DNA of 64,000 nt from Candidatus Latescibacterota bacterium (lineage in GTDB: Bacteria; Latescibacterota; UBA2968), in NCBI GenBank assembly GCA_965204375.1, contig OZ241986.1, positions 2,112,001-2,176,000 on the forward strand, in the 5' to 3' direction. The first letter of the stretch is position 1, and every line of letters starts with the position of its first letter. Below, piece after piece: positions 3,027-50,317 of the stretch. The position numbers and the translations under genes were made by a program. The notes under the pieces are model-generated. The model made no database searches. It was not told where the DNA came from and saw only the letters and a program-made list of their open reading frames with translations.

Positions 3027-3968
3027 CTAAAAAGCGAAGCCCATCCCAAACCGCAAGGGTTGATTCAGATCGTGTTTGGACTGCTGCCACGCCACATCCG
3101 CCGTGATCTTTGTCCCGGCCAGAGGCAATTTCACGCCTGCACCTGCTGTAAGCCCAAAGGAATCGTAGCGGAACATATACCCTCCGCGCAGCGCCAGTAT
3201 ATTGCCCAGCCAGGCTTCGCCGCCCACATGGTAGCGCTCTTCCCAGTTAATCAGGAAGTTCATCTCAACCGCCCCGGTGATATAAAACGGATCGCCTTGC
3301 TGCCCATAGACCTCGGCAGCGGTTCCCAGATTGAACGACAGGGGTTGCTGGAACTGTCTTCGCAAAACCTCTGTGTCCTTTCCGAAGTTCCGCAGTGCCA
3401 TTGACAACCTCAGGCTGCCAAGCCCGGTGTAGAACTTGGTGCCAAAATCCACATTGAAAGTCGTGTGATTGGTCAAGTCCAGATCCTCGCGAGCCAGCAT
3501 AAATCGCACGCCAAAGGACAGCTTGTCCGTGAACTTGCGGCTATAGATGAGACTAAAGGCCGATGTGCCCAGGCTGAGCGTTCGACCCGTGCCTCCCGGC
3601 TGCAAAATCGTGGTCTCTTCCACATCCTCTGGCTTAAAGGTCAGGATGCTGACCCCGATGGTATGCACACCGCTCGTATAAGCTATAGCCCCGGTATTGA
3701 ATGTAGAATTTACGAACCACTGCGAATGGCTCAGCGACACTTCCAATTTCTCCACGCCCGTCATCCCGGCCGGATTCCACCACGCGGCATTGACATCGTC
3801 TGCGGCAGTTGCATAAGCACTCCCCATTGCCACGGCGCGAGGGCTTTGCGCCACCGCAAGGGGCGAGAAGATTGTCAAGTCCGGCCGCTTAATAAGCCCA
3901 CCTGCATATGCTGGAATAGCCATTAGTGTCGTGGCGAGCATGCAGATGAGAAAAACTTTTTTATACAT
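3027..3968 (-). CDS. PorV/PorQ-family outer-membrane beta-barrel
   Basis: Signal peptide; SPRAVAMGSAYATAADDVNAAWWNPAG motif; C-terminal Phe; paralogue at 58195-59157. Confidence 0.85.
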   Translation of the reverse strand: MYKKVFLICMLATTLMAIPAYAGGLIKRPDLTIFSPLAVAQSPRAVAMGSAYATAADDVNAAWWNPAGMTGVEKLEVSLSHSQWFVNSTFNTGAIAYTSGVHTIGVSILTFKPEDVEETTILQPGGTGRTLSLGTSAFSLIYSRKFTDKLSFGVRFMLAREDLDLTNHTTFNVDFGTKFYTGLGSLRLSMALRNFGKDTEVLRRQFQQPLSFNLGTAAEVYGQQGDPFYITGAVEMNFLINWEERYHVGGEAWLGNILALRGGYMFRYDSFGLTAGAGVKLPLAGTKITADVAWQQSKHDLNQPLRFGMGFAF

Positions 3969-6596: not shown

Positions 6597-9500
6597 TTAC
6601 CAGGTCAACCGCAGCCCTGCAAATACCAGGCGCGGGTTGGTCCTTGTATATCTGCTCAACTCACTGGCATCGCCGCCGAACTGCATGAACAACGGATTGG
6701 TAGGCTGTGATTCAAGCAATCCCCACCGCACGTAGTCTGGGCTCGTGGATGCCGAGCCTTTGAAATTGAACAAATTTTCGACCTCCACATAAAGCAACGG
6801 GCGGATGCCCCTGATGTTGAAACCTTTCTGGAAGCTGAAATCAACCGCCGAGATCGTGGGACCCTCTTTCTTCAGGTTCAAACTGGTTTTCGGATCCTGA
6901 TAATCGAAGATACGTCCCGTGAAGATGCGGTAGATCATGTTCACCCGAACGTCGCCAAACAGCTTGCTGCCCCAGAACATCTCGCCGGGACCAAAATCGG
7001 GCGGACTGGCGTAAATCAGCACCAGGCTCCCATTTGTCCGCGTGGCATCGCTGCGCCCGCCTTCCACACTCCAGCCCGTCGTCGAAAAGGCGTAAAGCCC
7101 TCGCAGTGCTGCCTGTTCCTCACTGGACAGCCCGCTCTGCTCCCACAGGGGATAAAATTTCCCATCGTTGGTCGCATACATCGCACCCACACCGAACTCG
7201 CCAGCCAGACCTTTATCTACTACCTCCTGCGCCGCTGCCTTCAGTTCCTCCAGCTTGGCACCGGTCGGAGGGGCGGGAACCTCTGCCCCTGTATTCGGGT
7301 CAATTGTGTACTGTACCCAGTACCGGTTGGGATCGGCAATATAGGATGCATCCGGATAGATGCTCGCGCCCATATTGCCCCGCTTGGTGCCGCCAATAGT
7401 CAGGCGCTCGCCCCAGCCGAGGTTGAGTGCGGCTTTGAATGAGAAGTTGTGCTTCAACCCCTTCTTCAATGCCAGTTCGATGCCGCGGGTCGTGGTGTGG
7501 CCTCTGGGACCCTGCGAACGGGTCTTGGCTTTGCCGCCGATCTGCGGATCGCGGAATACCGCACCATTAACACTCAAAAATCCATTGGTGATGCGGTAAT
7601 AGGCAGTGCCCTGGAAGGAATAATCGCTGATGAAATTCCACTCCGTACCCAGCTCAAAAGCCGTAGAAACCTGCGAGTGCTGCAAGGAGAAGAACTGGTC
7701 AATCACAAATCCCGAGCCAAACGAGTCGTTGCGGACCAGGTTGTTATTGTACTCTTCAGCACTGATGTTTCCATCGTTGTTGTGGTCAATCGAGTGCGGC
7801 CCCGTCGCCCGCCAGTTCTGCTGGTATATCCGGCGGAAATCCGGACGGGTGTGGAACTTCCCGTAGAAGAAGTGAATCTTCGACTTGGCCGTAATCGGGT
7901 GCGAGATTCCCACCCGGGGCATAAACCAGTTCATCGGCTGCATATCGCCATACGTCACATGATTCCGGAAGCGCGTATAGTTGTAGCCCATTGGCGCGCC
8001 CTGATAGGGATAGAGGGGAACCACACCGCCGCTATACCGCTCGTAGCGGAATCCCGCATTGATGATCAGCCCCTCAAACTCCATCTTGTCCTGTACATAA
8101 GCGTGGAGTTCGGTGGGCGTAATTCCCTCACCTGGTACATATCGCTTGCCCCAGTAAATCAGCCATCGATTTCGCTCATCTACATCTTCGAAGGTCTCGG
8201 TCTTCCAGTTGTTGTAGCGATAAAACGTAAAACCGCCCTTCAGGAAGTGCGTGCGGGTCACCTGACTGGCCAGATCAAACCGGATTGCCAGCTTGTTCTG
8301 CTGTCCAACGCGAAGATCTCGTCTCTGACCGGAATCGGTGTAGTACCACCCGTCGTTGTCTAAGGATGGGTTCACCGTCGTACGGGGAATATCAATGGTG
8401 TCCTGCTTGCTGGCAATATACGACAGCCGCACTTCGTAAAACGTCTTTGCCGATAGGGTGTGGATGCTGGACGCATAGAACATGTTGTCCGTCACCTGCC
8501 ACTCACCCCCATAGCGTCCGCGTTCTTCCAGGAAAATCGCCCTGGAATCGAAACTATCTGCATAGCGACCTTTGCGGCTGGAATACAGCCCGCCCGCACG
8601 GAGCTTGATATCCGGTGTGGCGCTATAGGTCAATTTATAGCTCACATCCGCGTTAAACGGCTCGCGCTCAGTTGGCTGGGGCAGGTTCCGCGCCTGAAGA
8701 TCGTGCTTTGTGGTGGCAAAGAACGACAGATCGCGGTTAATAGGTCCCGAAAGGGACGCCTCTAAAAAATGCCCTCGCACATCAGTATAATCTCTCGAAG
8801 GCCGCTGATGCACCTTCCGGCCATTGGCTGTTTCATTCTCCCATTCAGAATCGCCATACTTCAGCCGGCCCTGATGCACGAAGCTCTCGTAAGCATTATT
8901 GCCCCAGTGCTTCTGTTGCGCTGGCGAATACCGATAGTGAAACTGCCCGTGGTAGTCCCGACCACCATCTTTGGTCACAATCTGGATAGAGCCGGTATTG
9001 CCGTATTCGGCATTTAACCCCCCAGCCAGCACCGTGATTTCTGAAATCGCCGACGTATTGACGTCGCCGCTCCAGTTCTGCGTGCCTCCACGAGTGCCCG
9101 TCCCGCGCCGACCATCCGAGTGCGTCAGGCGCACACCATCTACCATATACTCGGCCACCTCGCCGCCATCACCGCCCAGAAAGGCATTGCGGATCCGATT
9201 TGTGCCATCGATGTTGACACCTGCCTCCAGTTCGATAAATGAATCCAGATCGCGGACAATGGGCAGCACCGCAATATCCTCGGCTGTCACCACATAACGG
9301 CTCTCCGTCACATCTGCCTCTACCGGAGGCCGCTCTGCAATCACTGTCAGTTCACCCAGTTCCAGAGCCGCTTCATTGAGCGAGAAATCAACGGTCGTCG
9401 TCAGATCCGACGCAACCCGCACATCGGACTTGGTCGCACCCGTGTACCCGACCATCGACGCCTTCACCGTGTAGCTCCCCGGATCAACTGACAGGATAAA

Positions 9501-37995: not shown

Positions 37996-38024
37996 ATAGT
38001 ACGCCAACTTTTTGCTCAATTCAA
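37996..38024 (-). promoter_or_regulatory. sigma70 promoter of tandem PhyH gene 2
   Basis: TTGAAT-N17-TACTAT, conserved with 33790-33818. Confidence 0.75.
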
Positions 38025-38052
38025 TCAAAAATTTTTAAAGCTCCGAAAACGC

Positions 38053-38090
38053 AAAACCGGGACCTGCAGCACAGCCGTAAGTCCCGGTTT
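38053..38090 (-). terminator. Intrinsic terminator after the desaturase gene
   Basis: AAACCGGGAC...GTCCCGGTTTT stem. Confidence 0.7.
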
Positions 38091-38115
38091 AAACACCCTG
38101 TATTTCCCCCGAATA

Positions 38116-39132
38116 TTAAATCTGATGCACCGCCTTGCGCTTCGCGCGCATACTGGCGTGCGATTCTGGCGACCCATCGTGAAACGTGCCAAACCAGTAA
38201 TCAAATGGAAAATCATTCTCGCCGTAATTGCACTCAAAATAGCGGTGATGCAACTGGTGAAAAAACGACGCCGCAGGCATTCTATCACTGCTTCCCACCT
38301 CAATTTTATCAAACCCCACATGTCCTTGCGCTGGTGTAAATGCCGCATGTTGTGCATTCATCAACATGTGAATCGGATGGGACGGCACCACCCAGTGAAT
38401 CAGAATACAGCTAAAATACAACAAATGCTCAATCGGGTGCATAGCCAGCCCGGACCAGGGTCCAATATTGATATTCTTGTGATGCAAATAGTGCGCGGAC
38501 TTGTACAGGGGTTTCCAATGGGTCAGACGGTGAACCCAATAAAAATGGAACAGCCGCCAGAACTGAATACCGCACAGCAACGCCACAAAATAAACCGGTT
38601 CTGTGCGCCAATCGACATAGGGAATTATCTCATTGGCAAATGCCCACATAGAAACCACTTCATAAGCCGTCCAGATCGTTCCCCCACTCACACAACTCCA
38701 AAAAATATTATCGCGCAATTGATTGCCCCACAAAAATTTGCGGTTCGATGTCGCGAGCCATTTCGACGTGTATTTATACCGCGTGCCCTGCGCCTTGAAC
38801 CTGTAGAAATACACATGCCACGCGCCTGCAATGACGATGAGCATCGCAATATTGCGCGCATACATCTCGGCAATCCAATCCACGCGGAATTCCGCACAGC
38901 GCTCGAGCGCGGGTTGTAAATAAAGCCAGGTACCAATGGCAATAAGCATATAAATCGCGTTCCAGGGCCACAAATAGCCCGGAAAACCGAACATCCACTT
39001 CAGTGCCTCAACAGGACGCGGGGGCCATGCAAAAATCGGTGCAGGCTCCGGGCGTTTTGCGGGCTGCCACTCGCCACTTTCATTCCGAGCAACGCCATCT
39101 ACAACTTCTCTCTCCACTCTGGTATCAGCCAT
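38116..39132 (-). CDS. Sterol desaturase / fatty acid hydroxylase family protein
   Basis: His boxes HRLTH, HYLHH, HQLHH; NYG...DYWFGT; TM segments. Confidence 0.9.
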   Translation of the reverse strand: MADTRVEREVVDGVARNESGEWQPAKRPEPAPIFAWPPRPVEALKWMFGFPGYLWPWNAIYMLIAIGTWLYLQPALERCAEFRVDWIAEMYARNIAMLIVIAGAWHVYFYRFKAQGTRYKYTSKWLATSNRKFLWGNQLRDNIFWSCVSGGTIWTAYEVVSMWAFANEIIPYVDWRTEPVYFVALLCGIQFWRLFHFYWVHRLTHWKPLYKSAHYLHHKNINIGPWSGLAMHPIEHLLYFSCILIHWVVPSHPIHMLMNAQHAAFTPAQGHVGFDKIEVGSSDRMPAASFFHQLHHRYFECNYGENDFPFDYWFGTFHDGSPESHASMRAKRKAVHQI

Positions 39133-39165
39133 TGTACACTCTCCTCAAATGGTTGAGACTACGTA

Positions 39166-39825
39166 CTAAATCCTCCCGCTGACCCACTGAATACCCCGCA
39201 TTAACACCGACTGAAAATTTGCATCCTTCCACGTCTGATTGTCGTGCCCACTCTGAAAGCAAAACACCCGCGTACCATTGTATTGTCGCGTCCAGCCAAT
39301 CGACTTCATACACGCCGGGTGATCTGTCGTCAACAGCAAATGGCTATCCGAATCTGGTTCACCCATCACATAAGTCTCATCGATCATCTCCCAATCGGAC
39401 ATCCCGCTCGTAATCGGATGATCCCCATCCTCTACCGCAATCCGCATCACCTCATCGTGGCTGAACGATTCAAACGATCCCGCCACAACACCGGCCATCT
39501 GCACCCAGGGATCCCAATTTGGAAATGCCAGAATCGCGTGGTGCAACAACACCATACCCTTGCCCGTTGCCAGCCAGGACTCCAGCGCGCTTAGCGGTCG
39601 CCCCATCCACCCGGGACGGTTCTCATCTGTCGGACCTTCCTTATGCATATTGTAAAACACAACCGCATCGTAGAAATCGCGCTCCTCTGCTCGTGGCGAT
39701 GCAAAATCCTCCAGAGACTGAATATAGGCATCCACGCCTTCAAGATTGCGAAACAACCCGTGAAAATTCGGCACATCAAAACGGTGGCCGCCGGTCACCA
39801 CCGCAACCTTAATAGAATCGCCCAT
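39166..39825 (-). CDS. ThuA-like (class I glutamine amidotransferase-like) domain protein
   Basis: VVTGGH, GKGMVLLHHA, DHPIT, DETY, WTRQY..RVF..SGHD, RGIQW. Confidence 0.85.
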   Translation of the reverse strand: MGDSIKVAVVTGGHRFDVPNFHGLFRNLEGVDAYIQSLEDFASPRAEERDFYDAVVFYNMHKEGPTDENRPGWMGRPLSALESWLATGKGMVLLHHAILAFPNWDPWVQMAGVVAGSFESFSHDEVMRIAVEDGDHPITSGMSDWEMIDETYVMGEPDSDSHLLLTTDHPACMKSIGWTRQYNGTRVFCFQSGHDNQTWKDANFQSVLMRGIQWVSGRI

Positions 39826-39847
39826 AAGATATCTCCCTTAAAATAAT

Positions 39848-41290
39848 CTATCTCCCTCGATTTGTCTCCCAAACGGGTCTTTCCTGCCACGGCTCAAAAC
39901 CTGGATTCTCCTCGGGAATTTTGGCTTCGATCTCCTCCTGCCATCCCTTCAGAAGCTCGTGCAATCGATCTCGTACATCGGGCAATTCATCGGAAAGGTC
40001 ATGCGCCTCGCCAATATCCTCTCGCAAATTGTACAACTCGACATGCCCGGATTCAAAAAACTCGATCAGCTTATAATCCCCCGCCCGAACAGAAGATCCA
40101 GGTGTCCCTCCTTGATTGCCATAATGCGGAAAATGCCAGAAAATCGCATCGCGCGCCAGATCGTCCCCCTTTAACAAAGGCGCGATACTCACGCCATCGC
40201 AATGCTGCTCGGGAATCAAATCCAGACCCGCCATTTCCAGTATCGTCGGATAATAATCCGTACTCGTCACCGGAATATCACAAACAGACCCCGCCTGTAC
40301 CACGCCGGGCCATTTGACAATCAGCGGTTCTCGCGTTCCGCCTTCATACATCCAGCCCTTGCCTTCAGCAAGCGGTGCATTGCACGTTGGCGAGCCTTCA
40401 CTCGTCGCCAGCCCACCATTATCTGAGGTGAACATAATCGCGGTATTATCGGCAATACCCGCAGCTTCCAGCGTATTCAGGATGCGCCCCACACTTTCAT
40501 CCATGCTCTCAATCATCGCGGCGTACACCGGATCGGACTGCACCTTCCGCCGCGTAATGCGCCTATCCTTTTTGTGTTCCCCCGGAAAAAAATCGCCCTC
40601 CTCAAACGGCTCAATTTTATCCAGCCCCATCTTCTTCGCTTTCTCCTCGTACTTCTCGATCTTTTCTCGCTTCGCCTGAATGGGCGTATGCACCGTATAA
40701 TACCACAGATTCAGGAAAAACGGTCGATCATCGCGGTTCTCGATCAAATTTATAACGCGATCCGTCAAATAATCCGTCAAATACGTATCATCCGGCACAT
40801 CCACATCGTCCAGCACTGGAATCGTCCACGGACTAAAATAACCCCCACGCCCGGGAGAACCGTGTTCGCATCCGCCAACATTCACCTCAAACCCGTGTTC
40901 TTCGGGATAAAACCCAGGTCCCCCCAAATGCCATTTGCCAACATGCCAGGTCGCATAGCCCCCATCCTTCATCGCCTGTGCAATCGTGCGTTCTTCATGG
41001 GGCAAATACCTGAAATAGGGCACATCAATCAACTTGCCGCGATTGGGATGATTTCTCCCTGCCCAATCGATAAAATTCGTCACCCCAACCCGCGCGGGAT
41101 ATTTGCCACTCATCACACTCGCGCGCGTTGGCGAACACACCGGGCACGACGCGTACGCATCCGTAAACTTCATCCCCTCGGCGCACAACCGATCCAAATT
41201 GGGCGTCTCGTAAAATTCACTTCCGTAACACGTCGAATCTGCCCATCCGTAATCGTCCAGCAAAATAAAAATAATATTGGGTTTTTTCAT
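39848..41290 (-). CDS. Cys-type sulfatase (S1 family), cytoplasmic
   Basis: KPNIIFILLDD, CSPTR signature, GKWHLG, SDNGG, YEGG; no signal peptide. Confidence 0.95.
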   Translation of the reverse strand: MKKPNIIFILLDDYGWADSTCYGSEFYETPNLDRLCAEGMKFTDAYASCPVCSPTRASVMSGKYPARVGVTNFIDWAGRNHPNRGKLIDVPYFRYLPHEERTIAQAMKDGGYATWHVGKWHLGGPGFYPEEHGFEVNVGGCEHGSPGRGGYFSPWTIPVLDDVDVPDDTYLTDYLTDRVINLIENRDDRPFFLNLWYYTVHTPIQAKREKIEKYEEKAKKMGLDKIEPFEEGDFFPGEHKKDRRITRRKVQSDPVYAAMIESMDESVGRILNTLEAAGIADNTAIMFTSDNGGLATSEGSPTCNAPLAEGKGWMYEGGTREPLIVKWPGVVQAGSVCDIPVTSTDYYPTILEMAGLDLIPEQHCDGVSIAPLLKGDDLARDAIFWHFPHYGNQGGTPGSSVRAGDYKLIEFFESGHVELYNLREDIGEAHDLSDELPDVRDRLHELLKGWQEEIEAKIPEENPGFEPWQERPVWETNRGR

Positions 41291-41338
41291 AATGGTTTCC
41301 TCGGCAGGCGGCACGGATATAGGGATAAAGTCCTGCGA

Positions 41339-42667
41339 TCATCGGAGGCGGCATACCGCCTCCTTGGCTATGTTGTACCGGCTCTCTCCTGTACGGCGGT
41401 AACGCTCAATCATTCGTTCACGCTCTTTCGTCGGCTGTGCATCGTAAACACGCCAGACTTCGGCTATCTCTTCAGAAGGGATTTCGAAATTGAGTTCCTC
41501 TGCGTAGCGGTGCATCCGTTCCAGAGTGGTCAGCGCGTATTTCCAGTTGACAAGAGGTTTCAAGAGAAGCACTTCTCGCCGTTGCAGCGAAAGATGGGCG
41601 AGGGAATGAATACGCGCATCCCACAGCCCGTTTGGGCGATGCTCAACGCCGATAGCCGAAATCGCAATATCAAAGCACCTGAGTCGAGCGTCGAGAGTCG
41701 GTGGCCCAATTTCGTGCGGGACTTCGACAACACGCCCCCGGATATTGAACGCATCGGCAAAGGGTGGAGCCGGAAGCAGGCGGGATCCCTTGAAGTTAAG
41801 CAACTTGATCAAAGTCTCGCGGTCCTGGCGCGAGGGCGTCCAGAGGTCCAGATCTTTGGGAGGCTGTCCCGTTAGCAAAGTCTTGAACGCGCCCCCGGCC
41901 AGAAAGAACCGGGCACCGCTATCTAAACCGATGGTTGCCGCGACTTCACGGCGTGCAAACTCAATAACGTCGGTCTTTTCAAGTGGGCAAAGGGGCTCCC
42001 GATCATTGCAGACCGCCTCAAAGTCTCGGTAGGCCGTATGCAACCCATCTTTGTCGTGCCAAAAGAATACGCCTTCGAGGTACCAGGGCCAGTCATCCTT
42101 TCCGAGAGGTTGCTTCAGTAGCCGCGCCGCCGTTGCAGTCACCACCGAGTCGTGCGTGACAAACAGATGGATTCCGGGAATGTCGCCCGCGACGGCAAGC
42201 ATGTGTTGCACGAGAAACCGCGCCGCTTCGTCGGACCGCGCCATGCCCGGCAATGGGTCGGCACCCGACACGAGATTCGCCATGACGCTTTCATGTCCGC
42301 GATCCACCCAAGCCTGTCCGGCGCGTTTATTATCAAGGACGTAAACACCCGGATCGCCGAGTAAGCGATCACGCACTATGCGACCATCGGCTACGTTGGC
42401 ACCGTCTCGAAGAACTTTAGCTGTCTGAACACACCGCAGGATAGGACTGGCGTGAAGCGTACGCAATCTGTCGCCGAGCATAGCTCCTAACTCACGGCCA
42501 AGCTGTCGGCCAACATCTGTGATTGGAAGGGTGTGGCCCGCATCCCCAAGCGGAAGATGGCCGCGGACCGAGTGGCGCAGTAACAAAACTATCGGACGGT
42601 TGCGTGGTATCCGATCAAGAATCGAAATTATCGAGTGCGGAATTCGCCACTGAATGCTATCGGTCAT
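41339..42667 (-). CDS. Histidine phosphatase - nucleotidyltransferase fusion
   Basis: LLRHS, SPILRCVQTA, VTHD (histidine phosphatase); C-terminal FLAGGAFK...PKDLDLW resembles the CCA/poly(A) polymerase-type NTase head; ATGA overlap with the upstream gene. Confidence 0.75.
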   Translation of the reverse strand: MTDSIQWRIPHSIISILDRIPRNRPIVLLLRHSVRGHLPLGDAGHTLPITDVGRQLGRELGAMLGDRLRTLHASPILRCVQTAKVLRDGANVADGRIVRDRLLGDPGVYVLDNKRAGQAWVDRGHESVMANLVSGADPLPGMARSDEAARFLVQHMLAVAGDIPGIHLFVTHDSVVTATAARLLKQPLGKDDWPWYLEGVFFWHDKDGLHTAYRDFEAVCNDREPLCPLEKTDVIEFARREVAATIGLDSGARFFLAGGAFKTLLTGQPPKDLDLWTPSRQDRETLIKLLNFKGSRLLPAPPFADAFNIRGRVVEVPHEIGPPTLDARLRCFDIAISAIGVEHRPNGLWDARIHSLAHLSLQRREVLLLKPLVNWKYALTTLERMHRYAEELNFEIPSEEIAEVWRVYDAQPTKERERMIERYRRTGESRYNIAKEAVCRLR

Positions 42668-44334
42668 TGCGCCACTCCCACTAACACTGAAACAAGCGAT
42701 TCCAGAGTGCGAACCTCTTCCAGAGCGAAATCTGCGTTATTGAGCAAGTGCTGGTATTCCCCAGTTGTGCGTTCCTGTCCTCCACCTGCCATGAGCAGAT
42801 GCAAACCGCACAACGCGCCGGCGAAGCTCATCTCGGGAACCAACATCTCGACAATGTAGATGCGTCCCCCGCACGGCAGGGCTGTTCGGGCATTTTGCAG
42901 TATCCGACTCGCCTTCTCATTGTCCCAATCGTGAAGGACGCGAGCGAGCACGACTGCATCGGCCTCAATGCCCCACGGCACGAACAAATCAGCCACATAC
43001 CAAGAAAGTCCTTTGCGTTCTCCTTGCTCGCGCACGGCTTGAGCAATTACCTCGGGACGGTCAAGGACAGTCACTTGGAGATTGGGATGCGTATTGAGCA
43101 GGAGGTTTGCCAGCACACCCAATCCACCACCGGCATCAATAATGCGTTCGCGTCCATGGAGACCCAATTCATCCGGCACGGCCGAATAGTCGTGCCGGGC
43201 GTAACTTTTTAGCATTCGATGATGCGCCTCGCAACGTTGTGCATCGAGGGCGACTTCGGCGAAAACATCCGGAGCGTTCCTGTTGCCATTGGTGCACAGA
43301 GCTTGTGGAAGCGAGGTCCACATTTCCGAAAATGGTCCTGCGTACTCAAGGGCCGCACCGGCCAGTGTGAGCGGGTGGTCCTCACGGAGAAATTCTCCGC
43401 GTATGGTCAGATGCCAAGTGCCATCCCGTATCGTAACGAGGGCTAACTCCCCCAGCGCACGGAGAAGCCGCTGGGCACCATCAATCCGCAAGCCGTACTT
43501 GTGCGCGATCTCGATATCAGATGCGGGGAGTGATTCAATGACGCCGAGCTTGACCGCGGTGGCGATGGTCTGAGTCCGCCAAAATCCGACCATGTCTCCA
43601 GAGAGTGCCGCAAACTCAGAGCGGCGGGATGAACGTAGTTCGACCACGGCGTCGCCTGTCTCATTGATGACCTCGAGTCCTCCGTCGAATCGTTCCACAC
43701 GGGCCTGGCCGTTGTAAAAGGGTTCGACCATTGCGAATCGGCGTAGATAGGCGGGTGTTCCAACGCAATCAATGTGCATCCACCCGGCTTCATCCCGAGC
43801 GCGTGCGAAACCTTTGTGGAAAACATCAAGATCAATGAACCATTGACCATGTACTTGCCGGCCATCGGCGTCAATATGGGTGGATCTACCATCCCTGGCC
43901 TGAACGACAGCGATGCCATCCCGATAATCGCCGGCATAGTGCCACTGAGCTTGATAAACCGGAATGCCGCCTCGTGCGATGTGGAAGTAAGAGCCACTAT
44001 TATCACGTACCGCGCATCGTCCTTCTTGAAAGTTGCCACACCAAGCATATCGCTGAGAGTACGCATCTTTGCCGGATGGATGAATATGGTGCCAGCCATC
44101 ATCCCCGATAACGGCAGCGAGGTTTTCGTAGAACCCGAACGTGCGCCGAAAACACCGTTTATATGCCGGACTGCCATCTGGACCAATATGCCATGCCGCC
44201 GATCTTCGAAGGACAGGTGCCAGCCCCGGCACACGGAACTTCAGTACCTCGTCAAATCGTTCTTCATAAGCGGGAACGCCTTTGGCTACGTGATGAGAGC
44301 CATCTGGTGAAATAGCCCAGGATTCCGGATTCAT
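42664..44334 (-). CDS. WG-repeat protein fused to a class II O-methyltransferase
   Basis: About six FxEGxAxV...WxHID repeats; dimerisation segment; IIDAGGGLG SAM motif; RVLHDW; GGQERT. Confidence 0.85.
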   Translation of the reverse strand: MNPESWAISPDGSHHVAKGVPAYEERFDEVLKFRVPGLAPVLRRSAAWHIGPDGSPAYKRCFRRTFGFYENLAAVIGDDGWHHIHPSGKDAYSQRYAWCGNFQEGRCAVRDNSGSYFHIARGGIPVYQAQWHYAGDYRDGIAVVQARDGRSTHIDADGRQVHGQWFIDLDVFHKGFARARDEAGWMHIDCVGTPAYLRRFAMVEPFYNGQARVERFDGGLEVINETGDAVVELRSSRRSEFAALSGDMVGFWRTQTIATAVKLGVIESLPASDIEIAHKYGLRIDGAQRLLRALGELALVTIRDGTWHLTIRGEFLREDHPLTLAGAALEYAGPFSEMWTSLPQALCTNGNRNAPDVFAEVALDAQRCEAHHRMLKSYARHDYSAVPDELGLHGRERIIDAGGGLGVLANLLLNTHPNLQVTVLDRPEVIAQAVREQGERKGLSWYVADLFVPWGIEADAVVLARVLHDWDNEKASRILQNARTALPCGGRIYIVEMLVPEMSFAGALCGLHLLMAGGGQERTTGEYQHLLNNADFALEEVRTLESLVSVLVGVAQ

Positions 44335-46682
44335 GGTGTTTCTCCCGCAGGTTTACGCATGTTGCAACCGAGGCAAAGGGACCGGTTGCGGTACGTTGCT
44401 CTGAGCTCGCGGTAGGCATCGCTGTTCCATATCTCCATCAGTCCTTGCTCGTGCAGATTGCCAAATTCGCCCAATGTGCGGCGTTGGGCATCTGGAGCAC
44501 AGCACGGATCAAAGCGCCCCATCGCGCTTACCCAGGCCTCCTGCCCCAAAAATGGACATGGTCCGCCGGGGGCGAGATCGTCCACTGCATCTTCGTCGAG
44601 TGGGAGGATGTTCTCGAGCAGAATGTATTGTCCGTTTGGAAGCGTGCGTTCCTCGGCCACTTTCTGCGCCTTGAGTACCGCCTCGTTCCACCGGCGAATG
44701 GCCGCGGGATCGCGGCGCATGGATTGCTTTTTGATCTCGTCGAAGTGGATCCACAGGTGGTGCCCTTTCACGCGGTCCACGCCAAGGTCAATAGCGAGCC
44801 TCACCGTATCGGCGAGTTCCACCACATTGGCTTCCAGAAAAGTCAGTTGAAAGGTGACGCGACAACGATTGCCGCCGAGGGCCGCGTGTGCGTTTCTCAC
44901 CGCGATGAATGTCCGTGCGTTTTCCAGCACCTTCTCCCAGTTGGCACCGATCATGATGGTCTCCTGCGTCTCTTTTGTCGAGCCATTCCACGAGATTTTG
45001 ACATCCGATGTCACAGGCACGATTAACTCTGCCCATCTGCGTGCGCCAAGGCGCGGAAAGGTGCCATTCGTCGTGAGATTGAGCCAAATACCGTAGCGTT
45101 TACAAAGATCGAGAATGTCCTCGAATTGATCGTAGAGCAACGGTTCACCCATTGTTGATGGGATGATCTCCTCAAGGCCGTGTGGAGCCGCATCCGCGAC
45201 AACCCGCTCAATTACCTCAAAGGGCATCAGTCGCCTTGGCCGCCTCTCGGCCCTCCTCTGGTCCTGAAGCGGACTGTATGGTGAGTGCTCCTCGCACATA
45301 ATGCAGCGGAGATTGCAGGTGTCCGGGTTCGTGTCGAAGGTGATTCTCCAGGGTCCCTTCCGCTGCTGAACATGCGCGCTATTCTGCCGTTTCAACACTT
45401 TGTCGTAAAGTGCCTCAACTTGGCGAACATGCGTCTCAATATCTGGCACATCTCCTGTCTCGCTATACAAATAGCCCTTCGCGCCGATATCGGCGGCAAG
45501 TTCAGGCTCATCAACGAATCGCTGCATCTGTTCGGCGAGTGAGGTAGCGGAGCGATGCTCAAACAAAAGGCCGTTTACCTCGTGATGAACATACTCTCTC
45601 ATGCCGCCTGCGTTGGCAGTGATGACTGGCACGCGGGCCTGTTGCGCTTCGTGAATGACCAGCGGCGAGTTTTCCACCCAAACCGAAGGTACGACGATTG
45701 CGTCGCAACGATTAAAAACATCGCGCACAATATTCCAATTTTTGTATTCGGCCATCCATTCGATGCGTCCATCCAAGCACTCGGGCAATGAGCCCGTCAT
45801 CGCTTTCAGTGCAGCAGTGTCTTGTCCACTCGAGCGTCCCCAGATGCGTAAGCAGGCATCTCCGTGAATGGTACTGAACGCAGAAATGAGATTGTGAATG
45901 CCTTTGGCCGGAATATGCGTTCCAATATAGCCAAAGGTAAATGGTTCGCCGGGTATTCGATTGCGCCCCACCATCCGGTTCTGGTCAAAACCATAGTCGA
46001 GATAAACAAGTTTGCGTTCCGGTAAATCGAAATCGTCACAGAAACGGGCACGGAGATAGCGAGCTGGCGCGATAAAAAGATCAACCAATTCGACCATTTC
46101 ACGCACATGCCGCATGCGCCGTCCGACCCAGTCGGTCCAGTAGGCGACATCGGCCTCGTATTCATCGGGCGCACCGCTGAAGTAGCGGGCATAGCAACGC
46201 TCGGCACACTTGCGATCAACTTGTCCATCACAAGCGGCCCAGAGATTGTTCGGATCCTCTGGAAACATTTGCATGAACTGACCGCGGGGGCACATTAGCC
46301 AGTAGTCGTGCAGGGTGAAGATAATTGGAACTTCCTGCTGTGCCGCTTCGCGGACCAGCGAGGTCGAAAGATGGTTGAGGTGACCAATATGCACGATATG
46401 GGGCTGCAACCGATCCAGCAATCCGGCAAAGCACTGGTCAACGCCATCGGCCCGGTATCGATCCTTGAAACGGGGATTGTTGACAAGGTGCAACGTAACC
46501 CTGGGGTCTTCCGCATCCTGTTCCACACGCAAATGGAAGTCTGGCACAAAGGGATTTTCTTCTCGAGTGAAGACGTGTACCTCGTGACGGTCTGCGAGCC
46601 CTTGGCACAACATCTGGCTATACACCTCTGATCCAGCGTTATAGCGCATCGGATAGCCATGAATGACTTTCAGAATTTTCAC
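44331..46682 (-). CDS. GT4 glycosyltransferase - radical SAM/Twitch fusion
   Basis: GTG start after GGAGG; TLHDYW, PSVWVENSPLVIHEA (GT-B/GT4); CNLRCIMC radical SAM motif; GEPL; CPFL...PCC...GNL...IWNS...CLGC Twitch/SPASM domain. Confidence 0.9.
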   Translation of the reverse strand: MKILKVIHGYPMRYNAGSEVYSQMLCQGLADRHEVHVFTREENPFVPDFHLRVEQDAEDPRVTLHLVNNPRFKDRYRADGVDQCFAGLLDRLQPHIVHIGHLNHLSTSLVREAAQQEVPIIFTLHDYWLMCPRGQFMQMFPEDPNNLWAACDGQVDRKCAERCYARYFSGAPDEYEADVAYWTDWVGRRMRHVREMVELVDLFIAPARYLRARFCDDFDLPERKLVYLDYGFDQNRMVGRNRIPGEPFTFGYIGTHIPAKGIHNLISAFSTIHGDACLRIWGRSSGQDTAALKAMTGSLPECLDGRIEWMAEYKNWNIVRDVFNRCDAIVVPSVWVENSPLVIHEAQQARVPVITANAGGMREYVHHEVNGLLFEHRSATSLAEQMQRFVDEPELAADIGAKGYLYSETGDVPDIETHVRQVEALYDKVLKRQNSAHVQQRKGPWRITFDTNPDTCNLRCIMCEEHSPYSPLQDQRRAERRPRRLMPFEVIERVVADAAPHGLEEIIPSTMGEPLLYDQFEDILDLCKRYGIWLNLTTNGTFPRLGARRWAELIVPVTSDVKISWNGSTKETQETIMIGANWEKVLENARTFIAVRNAHAALGGNRCRVTFQLTFLEANVVELADTVRLAIDLGVDRVKGHHLWIHFDEIKKQSMRRDPAAIRRWNEAVLKAQKVAEERTLPNGQYILLENILPLDEDAVDDLAPGGPCPFLGQEAWVSAMGRFDPCCAPDAQRRTLGEFGNLHEQGLMEIWNSDAYRELRATYRNRSLCLGCNMRKPAGETP

Positions 46683-46748
46683 AGTACTTTCCTCCCGTCG
46701 TGTGACATACCAATATCTGTCCGGAATGACTCGGTGATCTCTTATGCT

Positions 46749-47099
46749 TTAATCTCTATTTACCTCAAATAGGCCAAGAAGCCTACTTGCAACTACCGTC
46801 TGTATATCACGCGGTAATATGCCTAATTCTCTCAAAATAAGTGATGTTCTAACAGTTACCACTCTATGCAGTCTGATAGCTGATGTCACTCGCAATCCCG
46901 TTAAAGAAAATTCAGGATGATCAGATCTGATCACCACATCAGAATCTTGTAATTCCACGGGAAAACGACTCGTGATAAATGCCAGAACAACATAGCGATA
47001 TTGCCCAACAGGATTTGTCAGACATAATGCAGGTCGCACTTTAGTCGCCGAGAAATCGTCAAAAGGAAACCGCACCAGAACGATCTTACCCCTCGTCAT
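46749..47099 (-). CDS. PemK/MazF-family toxin
   Basis: MTRGKIVLVRFPFDD...KVRPALCL...LAFITS...GLRVTSAIR; overlaps the upstream small gene. Confidence 0.9.
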   Translation of the reverse strand: MTRGKIVLVRFPFDDFSATKVRPALCLTNPVGQYRYVVLAFITSRFPVELQDSDVVIRSDHPEFSLTGLRVTSAIRLHRVVTVRTSLILRELGILPRDIQTVVASRLLGLFEVNRD

Positions 47100-47331
47100 A
47101 AAATGGCTTTCCATCGGAAAGGGTGTAAATATCCTCTTCAGGGTGCTTGAGAAAGTCAAAAGCGGGATTCTTTGATGCTGCCGACAGCCATTCGCGCTCG
47201 CCTATTTCGTCATTTTCATCTATCAGCACGATAACCCGAACAACGCCTGGTTTGACAGCACCCAATGGCTCATCCAATTGTAGATGGCCTTCAGCATCAA
47301 TCCTACCACTGACTTCAACAACTCTACTCAT
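47086..47331 (-). CDS. Putative antitoxin of the PemK/MazF toxin
   Basis: 81-aa acidic protein directly upstream of and overlapping the toxin; C-terminal AFDFL..EEDIY. Confidence 0.7.
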   Translation of the reverse strand: MSRVVEVSGRIDAEGHLQLDEPLGAVKPGVVRVIVLIDENDEIGEREWLSAASKNPAFDFLKHPEEDIYTLSDGKPFYDEG

Positions 47332-47368
47332 TTTTTCCCCCGCATTTATTATTTTACTCGCATGCCCT

Positions 47369-48361
47369 TCATATCTCCACATCCACACTCTTGCCAGAAG
47401 CACCTGACTCGCGTGCAGCGTGCAACACCTGCATCACCCACAAACCGTGTTCAGCGGTAATAATCAACTCCTCGCCCTCGCGCAAATGCCGCGCGATATT
47501 CGCGTGCAGATTTTCGCGCGGCACCGCATCCGTGCGCACTTCCTCAGAATCTTCACCATAGACCGTAACCTCGCCACCGCCCCCACGCTCGCACACAAGC
47601 GTGGCTTCCGTGCCCAAAACAACCCACTTATACGGCAGAGAATAAAAAGAAATATCCGCCTTGGCAGCACGCGCGCGCACCCCATTGTCAAACACCATCA
47701 CAATATCAAACAAATCGTCTGAATCGCCCCACTTCGTATGCCGCACATCGGCAAATACCGATACCACCTTGTGACCCGACATCAAATCGATAATCTGCTC
47801 GACCCAGTGCGGACCAAAATCCAGCAACGTTCCCCCACCCGCCGCGGCTGTCACGCGCCATTGTTGATTGTAATCGGGCACGCCAAAACCCACAGCGGGA
47901 CGCGCCCCCATTGTGCGATTCTCAAGCGCAACAATCTCGCCAACTGCGCCATCTAAAACCGCGTGCTTCACCAGGCAATAATCGCGGTCGTAATGCCGGT
48001 TGTGGTGCATCGTCAACACCACGCCATTCTCTCTGGCCGCCTGCACCATTTCCTCGGCCTCTAGCCCGGTCAGTGACATCGGTTTCTCAATTAGCATGTG
48101 CTTCTTCGCCGCCGCCACCTTGAGCGCATCCGCATAATGCGCCGCCGAATGCGTCGCAATCAAAACCAGTTCGATATCCCAACCGAGAAATTCATCGAGA
48201 TTATCGGTCGCACGCAGGCCCTCGGCAACCGCCTCTTCCCGCCTGGATTCCGTAATATCGCACACACCCACCACATCGTACAACCCCGTCTCGCGCATTG
48301 TTCTCAGATGACCGCCAGCCACCCGCCCAAATCCAATAATACCCGCCTTAATCTTTTCCAT
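47369..48361 (-). CDS. Gfo/Idh/MocA family oxidoreductase
   Basis: KAGIIGFGRVA, HMLIEKP, HNRHYD, GGGTLLDFGPH. Confidence 0.92.
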   Translation of the reverse strand: MEKIKAGIIGFGRVAGGHLRTMRETGLYDVVGVCDITESRREEAVAEGLRATDNLDEFLGWDIELVLIATHSAAHYADALKVAAAKKHMLIEKPMSLTGLEAEEMVQAARENGVVLTMHHNRHYDRDYCLVKHAVLDGAVGEIVALENRTMGARPAVGFGVPDYNQQWRVTAAAGGGTLLDFGPHWVEQIIDLMSGHKVVSVFADVRHTKWGDSDDLFDIVMVFDNGVRARAAKADISFYSLPYKWVVLGTEATLVCERGGGGEVTVYGEDSEEVRTDAVPRENLHANIARHLREGEELIITAEHGLWVMQVLHAARESGASGKSVDVEI

Positions 48362-48442
48362 TTATTTTTCCTCATCATCTCCGTATTCTTCACCGCGATA
48401 AGCCGCGCGCAACTCCGCGATATTGGTCGCCTTCACAACGCG
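48342..48442. repeat. Direct repeat copy (rraA 3' stub + gfo start)
   Basis: About 100 bp with about 6 differences from 49573-49672. Confidence 0.95.
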
Positions 48443-48464
48443 TGCATGAACTGTCTCGTTGGAT

Positions 48465-49568
48465 TCATTCGGCCCCGATCCACGCGGAACCGTAATCGTT
48501 ATCAAGCTCACGATACATGCTGTGAGCATGATCTACGGTGCCTTCGCCGTTTTGAACCGCGTATTCGAGTACCATGGACGGGCTGGTCACGCGGAAATAC
48601 GCGGCGCCCAAGGCTCCCTGCCGCCCCCACCATCCAAAGTATGTCTCCTCGATCTCGGCCACCACGGTTTTCATTTTCTCAGCATAGTCGTCATTGTTCA
48701 TGAAACCCAAACGGGCCTCGATCACATCCAGGAGTAACGTTCTCTGCATAGCTGTAAGTTCGCTTCCCTTAATGCCTTCCGGCGCAACTGTTGCACCATA
48801 CTTTCCTGGCCCCAGCAAGAGGTCAATGGGCTGCTCTGCACGAACGGCTTGTCCCTTCTGTTCGTCCGTAAGGCTATCCATGAACGCTTGCGCTGCCGCA
48901 GTTTCCCTCTGCGTAATGAAGATTTCGTCACCGTCAAGGCGCAAGTGCAGCGGTTGGCCGCCAGTCAGCATCGGTGAAAAGGAAACGTTCGGTCCGAATA
49001 CTGTGGCGTTTAATGCGAGATGGTGCCCGCCGAACTGGAACATCCAGGGCTCTGTACTTGACGGTTCACCGAGAAATGCAGCGTAAAAGTACTTACTGCC
49101 GTATTTCATGACGCCGAACAGGTCTCCTGGGATCAGTAAGTCTGCTGCGGCCAGTTGATAAGTGATATTTTTCACACCGTCTTCACTCAAGAGTTCACCA
49201 AGGAGCTTATCGAGATTCGCCCGCTGTATTGCAGAGAGAACACCGAGCTTTACACCACCACGCGGAACCATACCCTCAGGAAAGTTGGACCAGTTTGAAC
49301 GCTGTGCGTTATCGGTAAACCGATATGTCGCCGCTTGTCTCTGATTGTCGTCCAGTGAGTCCAGAAAGAGCCTTGCAGCCGCCACGATGGCCACGGTCTT
49401 CTCGTCGGCAGCAGGCAGGTCGTGAGCGTGCTTGAGATTGATCTCTACTGGTAAGGGAACCGCTCCAAAAAAGACCTGAGCTACAATATCGGGGTAAAAA
49501 AACAGGTAGCCGAAAACTGCGGCAACGGCAATCACTGCACCGAGAAGGTAGATCAACACACGTTTCAT
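48465..49568 (-). CDS. DUF3500-domain protein
   Basis: N-terminal TM anchor; WSNFP, FLGEPS, FQFGGHHLALN, HAHSMYR...NDYG. Confidence 0.8.
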   Translation of the reverse strand: MKRVLIYLLGAVIAVAAVFGYLFFYPDIVAQVFFGAVPLPVEINLKHAHDLPAADEKTVAIVAAARLFLDSLDDNQRQAATYRFTDNAQRSNWSNFPEGMVPRGGVKLGVLSAIQRANLDKLLGELLSEDGVKNITYQLAAADLLIPGDLFGVMKYGSKYFYAAFLGEPSSTEPWMFQFGGHHLALNATVFGPNVSFSPMLTGGQPLHLRLDGDEIFITQRETAAAQAFMDSLTDEQKGQAVRAEQPIDLLLGPGKYGATVAPEGIKGSELTAMQRTLLLDVIEARLGFMNNDDYAEKMKTVVAEIEETYFGWWGRQGALGAAYFRVTSPSMVLEYAVQNGEGTVDHAHSMYRELDNDYGSAWIGAE

Positions 49569-49572
49569 GGAT

Positions 49573-49672
49573 CCCGCCTTGATCTTTCCATTTATTCTTC
49601 CTCATCATCTCCGTATTCTTCACCGCGATAAGCCGCGCGCAACTCGGCGATATTGGTCGCCTTCTTAACGCG
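49573..49672. repeat. Direct repeat copy (rraA 3' end + frameshifted gfo start stub)
   Basis: Matches 48342-48442; a 1-nt deletion turns MEKIKAG into MERSRRDP*. Confidence 0.95.
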
Positions 49673-50317
49673 CTCTTGAAGTGCCTCTTCCCCTGCGATC
49701 AGTTCTTTCACATTCGCCAGCACCTCTGCCATCCGATCTGCGGGAAACTTAACCGCGCCATTTTCATCCATGTGAATAATCTCGCCAGGCGCAACATCCA
49801 TGCCGCAAATCGACACCGGCACATTCACCGCCTGCACAGCCTGATCGCCGTGGCCCGGCGATATACCCGTCAACAAATACTGAAACTCCATCGGACGAAT
49901 CTCATCGATATCTCTCGACGGCCCATTTGACACGCACCCCACGCACCCGAGTGCTTTCATCGTCGTCGTCATATTGCCGCCCGCAAGCCCCACCTTACCC
50001 GCAATCTCCGGCGGAAACTTCTGCTCCAGCGCCAGTATCGTCGGCTTTGGCGACGCATCCAGTGCCTCGGACACATCCATAAACGACAACCGGCTAAACC
50101 CCGCATCCGGCAACCCAAAAGTACACGTCACAGCATACCCACACCGCACGCCGAGTTCTGGATACATACACTTAATCGTCTGATCCGTGTACCAGTTCTC
50201 AACCCACGGATTGTAAAGCCCCAAACACAACGGATTACTCGGATACGTCGCCACCACATTTGTAATAGACGGCGTATCGAAATTCTCCAACTCCTTCAAA
50301 ATCTCCTGCTCTGTCAT
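49592..50317 (-). CDS. RraA / HMG-aldolase family protein
   Basis: DTPSITN, GYAVT, GCVSNGPSRDIDEI, VAPGEIIHMDENG. Confidence 0.85.
   Translation of the reverse strand: MTEQEILKELENFDTPSITNVVATYPSNPLCLGLYNPWVENWYTDQTIKCMYPELGVRCGYAVTCTFGLPDAGFSRLSFMDVSEALDASPKPTILALEQKFPPEIAGKVGLAGGNMTTTMKALGCVGCVSNGPSRDIDEIRPMEFQYLLTGISPGHGDQAVQAVNVPVSICGMDVAPGEIIHMDENGAVKFPADRMAEVLANVKELIAGEEALQERVKKATNIAELRAAYRGEEYGDDEEE

Follow-up and report, generated by a model that had tools for sequence, protein, structure and literature searches.

A foreign three-gene cassette of fusion enzymes in a Candidatus Latescibacterota genome, a previously undescribed form of the Undecim-core family

We analysed a stretch of 64,000 nucleotides from the genome of a Candidatus Latescibacterota bacterium (contig OZ241986.1, positions 2,112,001 to 2,176,000). 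This whole stretch is referred to as the window, and coordinates given without a locus label are window positions. Its minus strand carries a cassette of three genes encoding the fusion proteins P0001, P0002, and P0003. The cassette is a previously undescribed three-gene form of the uncharacterised Undecim-core family, and its new part is the third gene, which stands in place of the dioxygenase, transporter, and aldolase genes of the version found in endosymbionts. The genes and their domains are as follows.

44331..46682, minus strand: P0001, fusion of a GT4 glycosyltransferase with a radical SAM/Twitch-like domain, 783 residues, homologue of UC3/WD0613 (Pfam)
45378..46682, minus strand: GT4 domain of P0001 (residues 1-435), with a four-cysteine insertion in its N-terminal half (Pfam, PDB sequence match)
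44334..45365, minus strand: radical SAM domain of P0001 (residues 440-783), with C709, C727/C728, C770, and C773 (Pfam)
42664..44334, minus strand: P0002, fusion of a WG-repeat domain with a COMT-type O-methyltransferase, 556 residues, homologue of UC4/WD0614
43627-44334, minus strand: WG-repeat domain of P0002 (residues 1-236)
42667-43617, minus strand: O-methyltransferase domain of P0002 (residues 240-556)
41339..42667, minus strand: P0003, fusion of a histidine phosphatase with a class II nucleotidyltransferase, 442 residues
41993-42667, minus strand: histidine phosphatase domain of P0003 (residues 1-225)
41342-41992, minus strand: class II nucleotidyltransferase head and neck of P0003 (residues 226-442)

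Both gene junctions are 4-base ATGA overlaps, read directly from the sequence, and P0001 starts with a GTG codon seven bases past a GGGAGGA Shine-Dalgarno sequence. A preliminary description of this DNA, made from its letters alone, had seen three two-domain fusion genes joined in this way, and the sequence, Pfam, and an AlphaFold2 (AF2) model all agree with it; the five catalytic domains that it had listed are likewise all present, with their key residues conserved. The cassette is flanked by a sulfatase and a ThuA gene on one side and, on the other, by a MazF gene and its antitoxin gene followed by a GFO oxidoreductase gene. Promoter and terminator scans gave matches at chance level only. 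Signal peptides and genes for membrane proteins, flippases, or polymerases were recognised neither within the cassette nor as conserved neighbours of it.

The GT4 half of P0001 matches the Pfam models Glycos_transf_1 (89 bits) and Glyco_transf_4 (64 bits), and the other half matches Radical_SAM (54.7 bits) and SPASM (46 bits). P0001 is 66-87% identical in 15 related loci, with a mean column identity of 83% over 16 sequences. In these 16 sequences, E337 and E345, which form the EX7E motif of GT4 enzymes, are invariant, as are the CxxxCxxC cysteines C456, C460, and C463 and the M511-G512-E513-P514 stretch expected of radical SAM enzymes. Four further cysteines in the GT4 domain's N-terminal half, C131, C151, C159, and C163 (46194-46292), are invariant in the 16 close members and in 11 distant ones, including that of phage WO, which suggests a metal site specific to this family. 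In sequence, the GT4 domain is closest among PDB entries to 6kih (Tll1590 protein; E 5e-8 across 160 residues), presumably a sucrose-phosphate synthase, whose acceptor is phosphorylated. The PF20706 model (GT4-conflict) reaches 24.7 bits, below its cut-off and far under the generic GT4 models, and the best NCBIfam GT4 matches are exopolysaccharide (EPS) and lipopolysaccharide (LPS) enzymes, far below their cut-offs (EpsE, 49 bits vs 400).

The spacing of the C-terminal cysteines of the radical SAM domain (C709 ... C727/C728 ... C770-x2-C773) fits one auxiliary cluster, not two. The preliminary description had compared this domain to Twitch-domain enzymes such as BtrN, and the cysteine pattern would fit the single cluster of such a domain, with a weak BtrN profile match (E 3e-3); Pfam names the region SPASM. 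The other PDB profile matches are weak as well, the best being PqqE (E 1e-4), followed by anSME (E 2e-3), and the domain reaches no NCBIfam cut-off (N_Twi_rSAM, NF033640, 59 bits vs 170). Stand-alone homologues of 346-364 residues are 64-69% identical to the radical SAM half of P0001; a search for them returned 2816 proteins at E <= 0.001 (shorter proteins), which is a maximum, as radical SAM proteins of more remote kinship are counted too. A link to the adjacent sulfatase through anSME-type maturation was rejected, the adjacency having been made by the insertion and the anSME match having the E value given above.

The SPASM match, the PqqE match, and the nearest NCBIfam families, which are peptide or protein maturases, would also suit an enzyme maturing a peptide or protein, either RiPP-like or a conserved host protein, that is subsequently glycosylated and methylated and is recognised by the WG domain. 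Mycofactocin, which combines a SPASM radical SAM enzyme, a glycosyltransferase, and a methyltransferase, is a precedent. We give this explanation only a very slight chance: there is no conserved small open reading frame and no room for one in the 6.1-kb insert (66 bp separate MazF from P0001), no PqqD/RRE domain was found with Pfam, and the cysteine pattern fits one auxiliary cluster rather than two.

In P0002, the WG_beta_rep match is weak (18 bits, against 79 bits in relatives), whereas Dimerisation and Methyltransf_2 are found at 105 bits. The methyltransferase half matches the fold of 5i2h (Z 30, rmsd 2.6, 288 residues aligned), and its sequence matches AlpH, CalO6, and CalO1 are natural-product O-methyltransferases. 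As in COMT-type enzymes, G403, G406, and H468 are invariant, and G402 and G404 nearly so, in 14 sequences; in L043, a distant member, the SAM motif is degenerate. Conserved histidine, arginine, and aromatic residues are abundant in the WG domain. Its subfamily comprises 256 representatives at E <= 1e-30 (full HMMER search, 50% clustering). In 42 representatives, picked for varied lengths from 150 listed and surveyed by Pfam, the partners of the WG domain are a methyltransferase, a histidine phosphatase, both together, an AAA_33 kinase, a protein-kinase/APH-like kinase, a PhyH dioxygenase, a class II aldolase, and TPR; WG, methyltransferase, and GT4 were seen once in a single protein. By our own reading, the partners other than TPR come from families best known for enzymes with small-molecule substrates, many of which are phosphorylated. 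As the partner enzymes vary, the WG domain appears to be the fixed adaptor to which each variant attaches its tailoring enzyme. The resulting map of domain shuffling, in which phosphatase, kinase, methyltransferase, dioxygenase, and aldolase domains all centre on WG, constrains the chemistry in testable ways.

P0003 matches the Pfam model His_Phos_1 with 19.7 bits, just below the cut-off of 21.7, and PF00300 is the precomputed assignment for most of its relatives. Its AF2 model was built on 31 homologues and has a pLDDT of 91.5. In this model, residues 20-215 are predicted to adopt the fold of histidine phosphatases (2qni, Z 14.1; RosC, Z 13.3; PhoE, Z 13.3), and R31, H32, and H172 are invariant in 31 sequences, as in histidine phosphatases of branch 1. 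Residues 228-442 are likewise predicted to adopt the fold of class II tRNA nucleotidyltransferases (4wby, Z 13.2, rmsd 3.8, 200 residues aligned; 3h37, Z 12.6; 1miv, Z 10.2; Foldseek E 5e-8). G258, G259, D272, D274, and E342 are invariant in the 31 sequences, and the GG...DxD signature is kept. The nucleotidyltransferase fold that had been suggested for the C-terminal domain of 41339-42667 is thus borne out by the model and the fold search. In contrast to the tRNA enzymes, this domain comprises the head and neck only (about 215 residues, aligned up to about position 222-269 of enzymes of 370-425 residues), is fused to a histidine phosphatase, and lies in a sugar-tailoring operon. The tRNA-binding body and tail are missing, and Pfam gives no PolyA_pol match at E 0.01. 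In two stand-alone nucleotidyltransferase relatives, PolyA_pol reaches 14.6-16.5 bits (cut-off 23); some stand-alone homologues carry a precomputed PF26128 label, which our Pfam scan did not reproduce. No paper that we found describes the architecture of P0003, in which a histidine phosphatase is joined to a CCA-type nucleotidyltransferase that has no body.

The cassette and the neighbouring toxin-antitoxin pair lie together in one inserted segment.

41285..47370, no strand: inserted segment comprising the three-gene cassette and the MazEF pair, 6.09 kb, against 13 bp in close relatives
46749..47099, minus strand: MazF/PemK-type toxin gene, 116 residues (Pfam PemK_toxin, 43 bits)
47086..47331, minus strand: putative antitoxin gene, overlapping the start of MazF, 81 residues

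The preliminary description had called the cassette foreign, as it lacked the skew of its flanks, and had seen it interrupt a run of catabolic genes next to a PemK/MazF pair. All of this is confirmed. The plus-strand GC skew is about -0.02 to -0.08 within the cassette and -0.2 to -0.33 in the flanks, and at third codon positions the G-C skew ranges from -0.03 to -0.12 in the cassette genes, compared with +0.24 to +0.59 in eight of the nine neighbours measured. The composition of MazF differs again from the rest of the insert (GC3 0.33). When positions 38000-50000 of the window were compared by BLASTN with 20 relatives, ten genomes of the same genus (G002-G010 and G012), with flanks 92-97% identical, were found to lack the segment at this site: only 6-15 bp separate the sulfatase start from the GFO stop. 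One matching stretch of the query ends at position 3285 (3291 in G009 and G010) and the next begins at 9364-9374. No target-site duplication was seen when the junction sequences at the ends of the 6.09-kb segment were read. The site beside the GFO gene is variable, and the cassette that occupies it is foreign DNA. A DUF3500 gene located two genes past the insert (48465-49568) has a third-position skew of -0.04, unlike the other eight neighbours, and may be another foreign gene.

The cassette is present in three of 21 genomes of the genus (P0003 as query) and in four of 168 genomes of the phylum (stand-alone radical SAM homologue as query). In G011 and G019, it directly adjoins the orthologous GFO gene, whose protein is about 85% identical to that of the window, without MazEF and with a different far flank. 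As the divergence of the cassette is similar to that of the flank, a recent one-off insertion as the sole history is ruled out: either an ancestral cassette was lost in most lineages of the genus, or it was captured repeatedly at the GFO site. A more distant species, G001, has a frameshifted antitoxin remnant between the GFO and sulfatase orthologues (L054:2917-3172), without MazF and without the cassette, which indicates that the history of the toxin-antitoxin pair here is a separate one. In no other locus examined does MazEF stand beside the cassette.

Co-occurrence of the three genes, a check put forward with the preliminary description, was examined in 23 loci found by a scan with P0003 (one genome per species; genes placed by tblastn). 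The GT4-radical SAM, WG-containing, and nucleotidyltransferase-containing genes occur together and in the same order in 18 of them; the remaining five are two loci cut by contig ends, two Hormoscilla loci, and one chance-level match. By record title, the hosts are 'Candidatus Latescibacterota' metagenome-assembled genomes (MAGs), Myxococcota, Beta- and Gammaproteobacteria, Planctomycetota, and a delta-proteobacterial MAG. Across loci, identity is about 55-83% for P0002 and P0003. The three genes travel together across phyla and are under strong purifying selection. The fusions are less constant than the gene order, the methyltransferase half being missing in L013, L019, and L027 and the phosphatase half in L024 and L027.

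Eight of the 21 related loci, and each of the three endosymbiont loci, add to the cassette a gene for an NAD-dependent epimerase of the short-chain dehydrogenase/reductase (SDR) family, whereas the window has none. This makes the earlier idea of a self-contained pathway uncertain. Eleven metagenome loci, retrieved with a stand-alone radical SAM homologue, contain the same cassette either split or, in L041 and L042, fused. Where the contig is long enough, the order of the split genes is GT4, radical SAM, WG-methyltransferase, and a histidine phosphatase that lacks the nucleotidyltransferase. L044 and L049 have a gene for an NAD-dependent epimerase after the split cassette, on the other strand, and L049 additionally has one for UDP-glucose dehydrogenase. 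In L048 (2636-8817), which includes SDR, GT4, and radical SAM genes and adjoins a sigma-54 activator gene, the methyltransferase is replaced by a WG-histidine-phosphatase fusion and a NodU/CmcH-type carbamoyltransferase.

The closest described relatives are in mobile elements of endosymbionts. P0001 is 52.3% identical over 99% of its length to its homologue in phage WO of wMel (MN180251, tblastn) and 52-55% identical to homologues on plasmids of Rickettsia asiatica, of the Rickettsia endosymbiont of Ixodes pacificus, and of three Arsenophonus; by domain, the identity is 50-55% for GT4 and 56-57% for radical SAM. These copies belong to the Undecim Cluster (WO WD0611-WD0621; Rickettsia plasmids pREIS2-type and pRA1; Arsenophonus plasmids), in which a GT4-radical SAM fusion covering 98-99% of P0001 is directly followed by a WG/methyltransferase gene (UC4, WD0614). 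The WG part of UC4 is 42-48% identical to that of P0002 (E 1e-60 to 1e-73), and its methyltransferase part 20-28% (E 3e-9 to 9e-34). In WO and Rickettsia, the order is epimerase, glycosyltransferase/radical SAM, WG/methyltransferase, PhyH dioxygenase, ABC transporter, and two threonine aldolases; the Arsenophonus copy has a hypothetical protein in place of the transporter and a single aldolase. The window differs in having MazF rather than the UC2 epimerase directly upstream and in lacking, in its 6.1-kb insert, the PhyH dioxygenase (UC5), ABC transporter (UC6), and threonine aldolases (UC7/8), as well as the GlpT-type transporter, UDP-glucose dehydrogenase, and second methyltransferase of the full eleven-gene cluster. 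Conversely, no phosphatase-nucleotidyltransferase homologue was found by tblastn in the WO, Rickettsia, or Arsenophonus loci. The hosts also differ, being insect and tick endosymbionts in one case and not such an endosymbiont in the other.

In the published text, UC1-UC11 correspond to WD0611-WD0621, UC3 is a glycosyltransferase/radical SAM fusion, and the functions given are predictions 'based on annotation' only (PMC9203015, Bordenstein and Bordenstein 2022). Proteins of the WO cluster have been detected by mass spectrometry, and the same text notes the KWG-methyltransferase fusion, crediting Gillespie et al. 2012, and lists syntenic homologues in free-living bacteria (PMC4701759, Baldridge et al. 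2015). Like the window cassette, the cluster is mobile and patchily distributed (PMC9203015; PMC4701759). The texts found name no product and mention no phosphatase-nucleotidyltransferase gene; the supplements of PMC9203015 and PMC4701759 may hold wider distributions. The statement in the preliminary description that no named system has this architecture is therefore correct for the third gene, which these texts do not describe, but not for the GT4-radical SAM/WG-methyltransferase pair, which is UC3/UC4 of the published Undecim Cluster (PMC9203015, PMC4701759).

For UC1-UC3 and UC10, a role in the decoration of cell-surface glycans has been suggested from annotation (PMC9203015). Applied to the whole family, this would mean the decoration of LPS, EPS, or capsule, which is consistent with the frequency of GT4 enzymes in polysaccharide synthesis, with the EPS/LPS enzymes among the top NCBIfam matches (far below cut-offs), and with the SDR, UDP-glucose dehydrogenase, and GlmU-like genes found beside some copies. 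We nevertheless consider it very unlikely. No initiating transferase, flippase, polymerase, export, or lipid-carrier gene is present in or beside the cassette in the window and the loci examined, and these loci lie outside LPS/EPS and known antibiotic clusters, so that the mapping to such a pathway that would have contradicted the preliminary description was not observed. The window cassette is inserted among catabolic genes, and the unit of three to five genes moves between phyla whose envelopes differ greatly, obligate intracellular bacteria among them. Moreover, glycan polymerisation does not usually involve radical SAM, phosphatase, or nucleotidyltransferase domains.

The flanks of the cassette differ in every lineage. 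At other loci, Pfam identifies among the flank genes IS110, a serine recombinase, integrases, KAP NTPase, DUF4411, T5orf172, patatin-iHKD, NYN, WYL-WCX, HNH, GmrSD, Fic, and resolvase. A PADLOC run on 76 picked flank proteins of 21 loci and on the MazEF pair of the window, made with no control set, gave specific matches in eight of the 21 loci and none in the other 13, and several of the matches are generic kinases. The matches comprise PDC-M07A/AriA-like, RtcR-CARF, PDC-S02, KAP/QatA-like, WYL with DpdE (E 4e-161), GmrSD/HEC-06, SoFic, and E1-E2/JAB with LmuA-like proteins. The three cassette proteins themselves match no PADLOC-DB 2.0 system, the nearest being pVip (1e-6) for the radical SAM core and mad2 (6e-6) for the methyltransferase core, with nothing for P0003. 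The proximity to defence islands that the preliminary description proposed to check is thus frequent elsewhere, as far as a set of loci with no control can tell, whereas the cassette proteins belong to no listed system. In L017 (1030-17349, Ramlibacter alkalitolerans), a PhyH dioxygenase gene sits between the GT4-radical SAM and WG-methyltransferase genes, and the flanks contain patatin-iHKD on one side and NYN, WYL-WCX, and the DpdE-like helicase (E 4e-161) on the other. In L011 (12700-14430, a Myxococcales MAG), an RtcR-type CARF-AAA-HTH regulator (E 6e-148) and DUF4411 are found a few kb downstream of the cassette.

These flanks fit an accessory gene set lodging in variable islands, and a defence role is kept as a possibility. 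The cassette could be a chemical or nucleotide-based conflict system, which would produce a modified sugar or nucleoside compound or modify the nucleic acid of an invader, in anti-phage or inter-bacterial defence. The flanks, which are variable elsewhere and often consist of mobile or defence-type genes, the association with MazEF in the window, and the relatives carried by phage WO and plasmids all argue for it. The lack of a PADLOC system match, the PF20706 score under its cut-off, the uncontrolled island frequency with 13 of 21 loci lacking a specific match, and the absence of a recognisable sensor or effector in the minimal cassette argue against it. In addition, viral contigs of IMG/VR, searched with two peptide patterns, contain no true homologue and a single locus at 22% identity. 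A conflict system is therefore possible but unlikely; its chemistry would overlap with that of the explanation we favour below, and its function would differ in being defensive rather than metabolic.

P0003 also raises the possibility of a module that repairs or modifies RNA (tRNA) 3' ends. In such a module, the phosphatase would heal a 2',3'-cyclic or 3'-phosphate end, the nucleotidyltransferase would rebuild or extend it, the methyltransferase and GT4-radical SAM protein would cap or decorate it, and the WG domain, with its conserved histidine, arginine, and aromatic residues, would be the RNA-binding part. This logic parallels that of Pnkp/Hen1 and of bacterial CCA enzymes with a phosphoesterase domain. 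The fusion of a phosphatase to a domain whose nucleotidyltransferase matches among the top 50 are all class II tRNA enzymes, the adjacent RNA-cutting toxin MazF in the window, and the RtcR-type regulator located 3.4 kb from the cassette in L011 are consistent with this view. Nevertheless, the nucleotidyltransferase is dispensable, being missing from split cassettes and from all endosymbiont copies, P0003 has no body or tail to hold a tRNA, and, in our own reading of the alignment, what we take to be the nucleotide-selecting motif of CCA enzymes (EDxxR) is not kept. The methyltransferase is of the small-molecule COMT type, the class II aldolase, carbamoyltransferase, UDP-glucose dehydrogenase, and SDR partners are enzymes of sugar metabolism, and MazEF accompanies the cassette in the window only. 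Taken together, an RNA module appears quite unlikely.

We tentatively favour, at slightly less than an even chance, a different explanation: the cassette would be a horizontally acquired minimal Undecim-core variant that runs a cytosolic multi-enzyme pathway from primary metabolites to a tailored glycoside. Each chemical step is proposed from family membership. The GT4 domain would transfer a sugar from a nucleoside diphosphate (NDP)-sugar onto a phosphorylated acceptor, and the fused Twitch-like radical SAM domain would then abstract a hydrogen from the sugar or cyclitol, resulting in a BtrN-type oxidation or in an epimerisation or rearrangement. The histidine phosphatase would remove the phosphate, the COMT-type enzyme would O-methylate a hydroxyl, and the nucleotidyltransferase could finally place an NMP on a free hydroxyl, which would be a last decoration or would reversibly mask a bioactive product. 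The WG domain could be the common module tethering the tailoring enzyme present either to its substrate or to the core enzyme. Genes that make the donor (SDR and UDP-glucose dehydrogenase) stand beside many copies of the cassette, and a GlmU-like gene beside some. We favour a tailored glycoside because these partner genes make NDP-sugars and because the other partners (phosphatase, kinases, class II aldolase, and carbamoyltransferase) come from families whose substrates are mainly small molecules, often phosphorylated. Hydroxyls of the aminoglycoside type are classically masked in two ways, by phosphorylation and by nucleotidylylation. Since an APH-type kinase elsewhere takes the accessory place that the nucleotidyltransferase takes here, reversible masking of a bioactive product may be proposed by analogy, as a speculation.

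Two groups of known systems resemble the proposed pathway. Glycosyltransferase and phosphatase pairs build glycosides via phosphorylated acceptors, as in sucrose-phosphate synthase/phosphatase, MshA/MshA2, and glucosyl-3-phosphoglycerate synthase/phosphatase. The cassette likewise has a GT4 enzyme beside a dedicated phosphatase, and 6kih is the best solved relative of its GT4 domain by sequence. However, such pairs have no radical SAM, WG, or methyltransferase part, and the identity to 6kih is low (E 5e-8, 160 residues). BtrN, for its part, works in 2-deoxystreptamine aminoglycoside pathways together with the GT4 enzyme BtrM. The cassette shares with the BtrN/Twitch dehydrogenases the CxxxCxxC motif, a C-terminal four-cysteine pattern that would fit one auxiliary cluster, and the association with GT4 and a phosphatase, as well as with a carbamoyltransferase in one relative. 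In contrast to BtrN, its radical SAM domain is fused to a glycosyltransferase and is only marginally similar (E 3e-3), and neither a 2-deoxy-scyllo-inosose synthase nor an aminotransferase of the butirosin-type pathway is encoded in the insert or its conserved neighbours.

Several observations weigh against a soluble pathway to a glycoside. Among the top 50 fold matches of P0003, the nucleotidyltransferases are exclusively CCA- or A-adding enzymes of tRNA, whose substrates are RNA 3' ends rather than small molecules. Pfam (SPASM) and NCBIfam place the radical SAM domain nearest to SPASM peptide or protein maturases (W_rSAM_matur, 72 bits, far below cut-off). A repeat domain of about 240 residues on every tailoring enzyme would be unusual in a small-molecule pathway and would suit a macromolecular target. 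As the window lacks the SDR of many relatives, the sugar donor must come from the host metabolism, and there is no exporter in the cassette.

A more specific form of the proposal, which we regard as rather improbable, is that the P0003 variant is a self-sufficient three-protein machine that makes a radical SAM-modified glycoside or nucleoside-like toxin against phages or competitors and masks it reversibly by nucleotidylylation or phosphorylation. The same core chemistry would then operate in the Undecim Cluster, and the four cysteines of the GT4 domain would form a redox or metal centre coupled to the radical SAM domain. We know of no characterised glycosyltransferase with a Cys4 centre coupled to a fused radical SAM domain. 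Whatever its function, the GT4-radical SAM/WG cassette belongs with the more widespread, mobile, and tightly conserved of the gene sets that have no known product, and its family is carried by a Wolbachia phage, where it has been proposed to shape the interaction between host and symbiont. The window cassette is the smallest version seen, with three genes, no transporter, and no donor-synthesis gene, which makes it a practical construct for product discovery by heterologous expression.

Some related loci carry further features. A protein of about 210 residues, named c4, is encoded after the nucleotidyltransferase gene in seven of 21 loci (for example L006:11360-11995, L007, L010, L019, and L023). 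It has an invariant D83-W-D85 and many invariant tryptophan and cysteine residues. Pfam gives only Mannosyl_trans3 at E 0.04, a PDB profile search gives nothing at E 10, and c4 was not found in the genome of the window with the query used. Two Hormoscilla MAGs (L025:10001-11310 and L026:10001-11310) have a stand-alone nucleotidyltransferase gene paired with c4, without GT4-radical SAM or WG genes within 10 kb; this pair adjoins an IS110-like fragment, a GTPase gene, and a GmrSD-type restriction gene. In the delta-proteobacterial MAG (L021:5983-11310), all three cassette genes are present in several frame-shifted pieces, which represent either a decaying copy or an assembly error. Finally, contigs of several sponge-metagenome-labelled runs from two studies hold 24-49% of the sampled cassette words, and those of three runs of another study, which may be its source, hold 98-99%.

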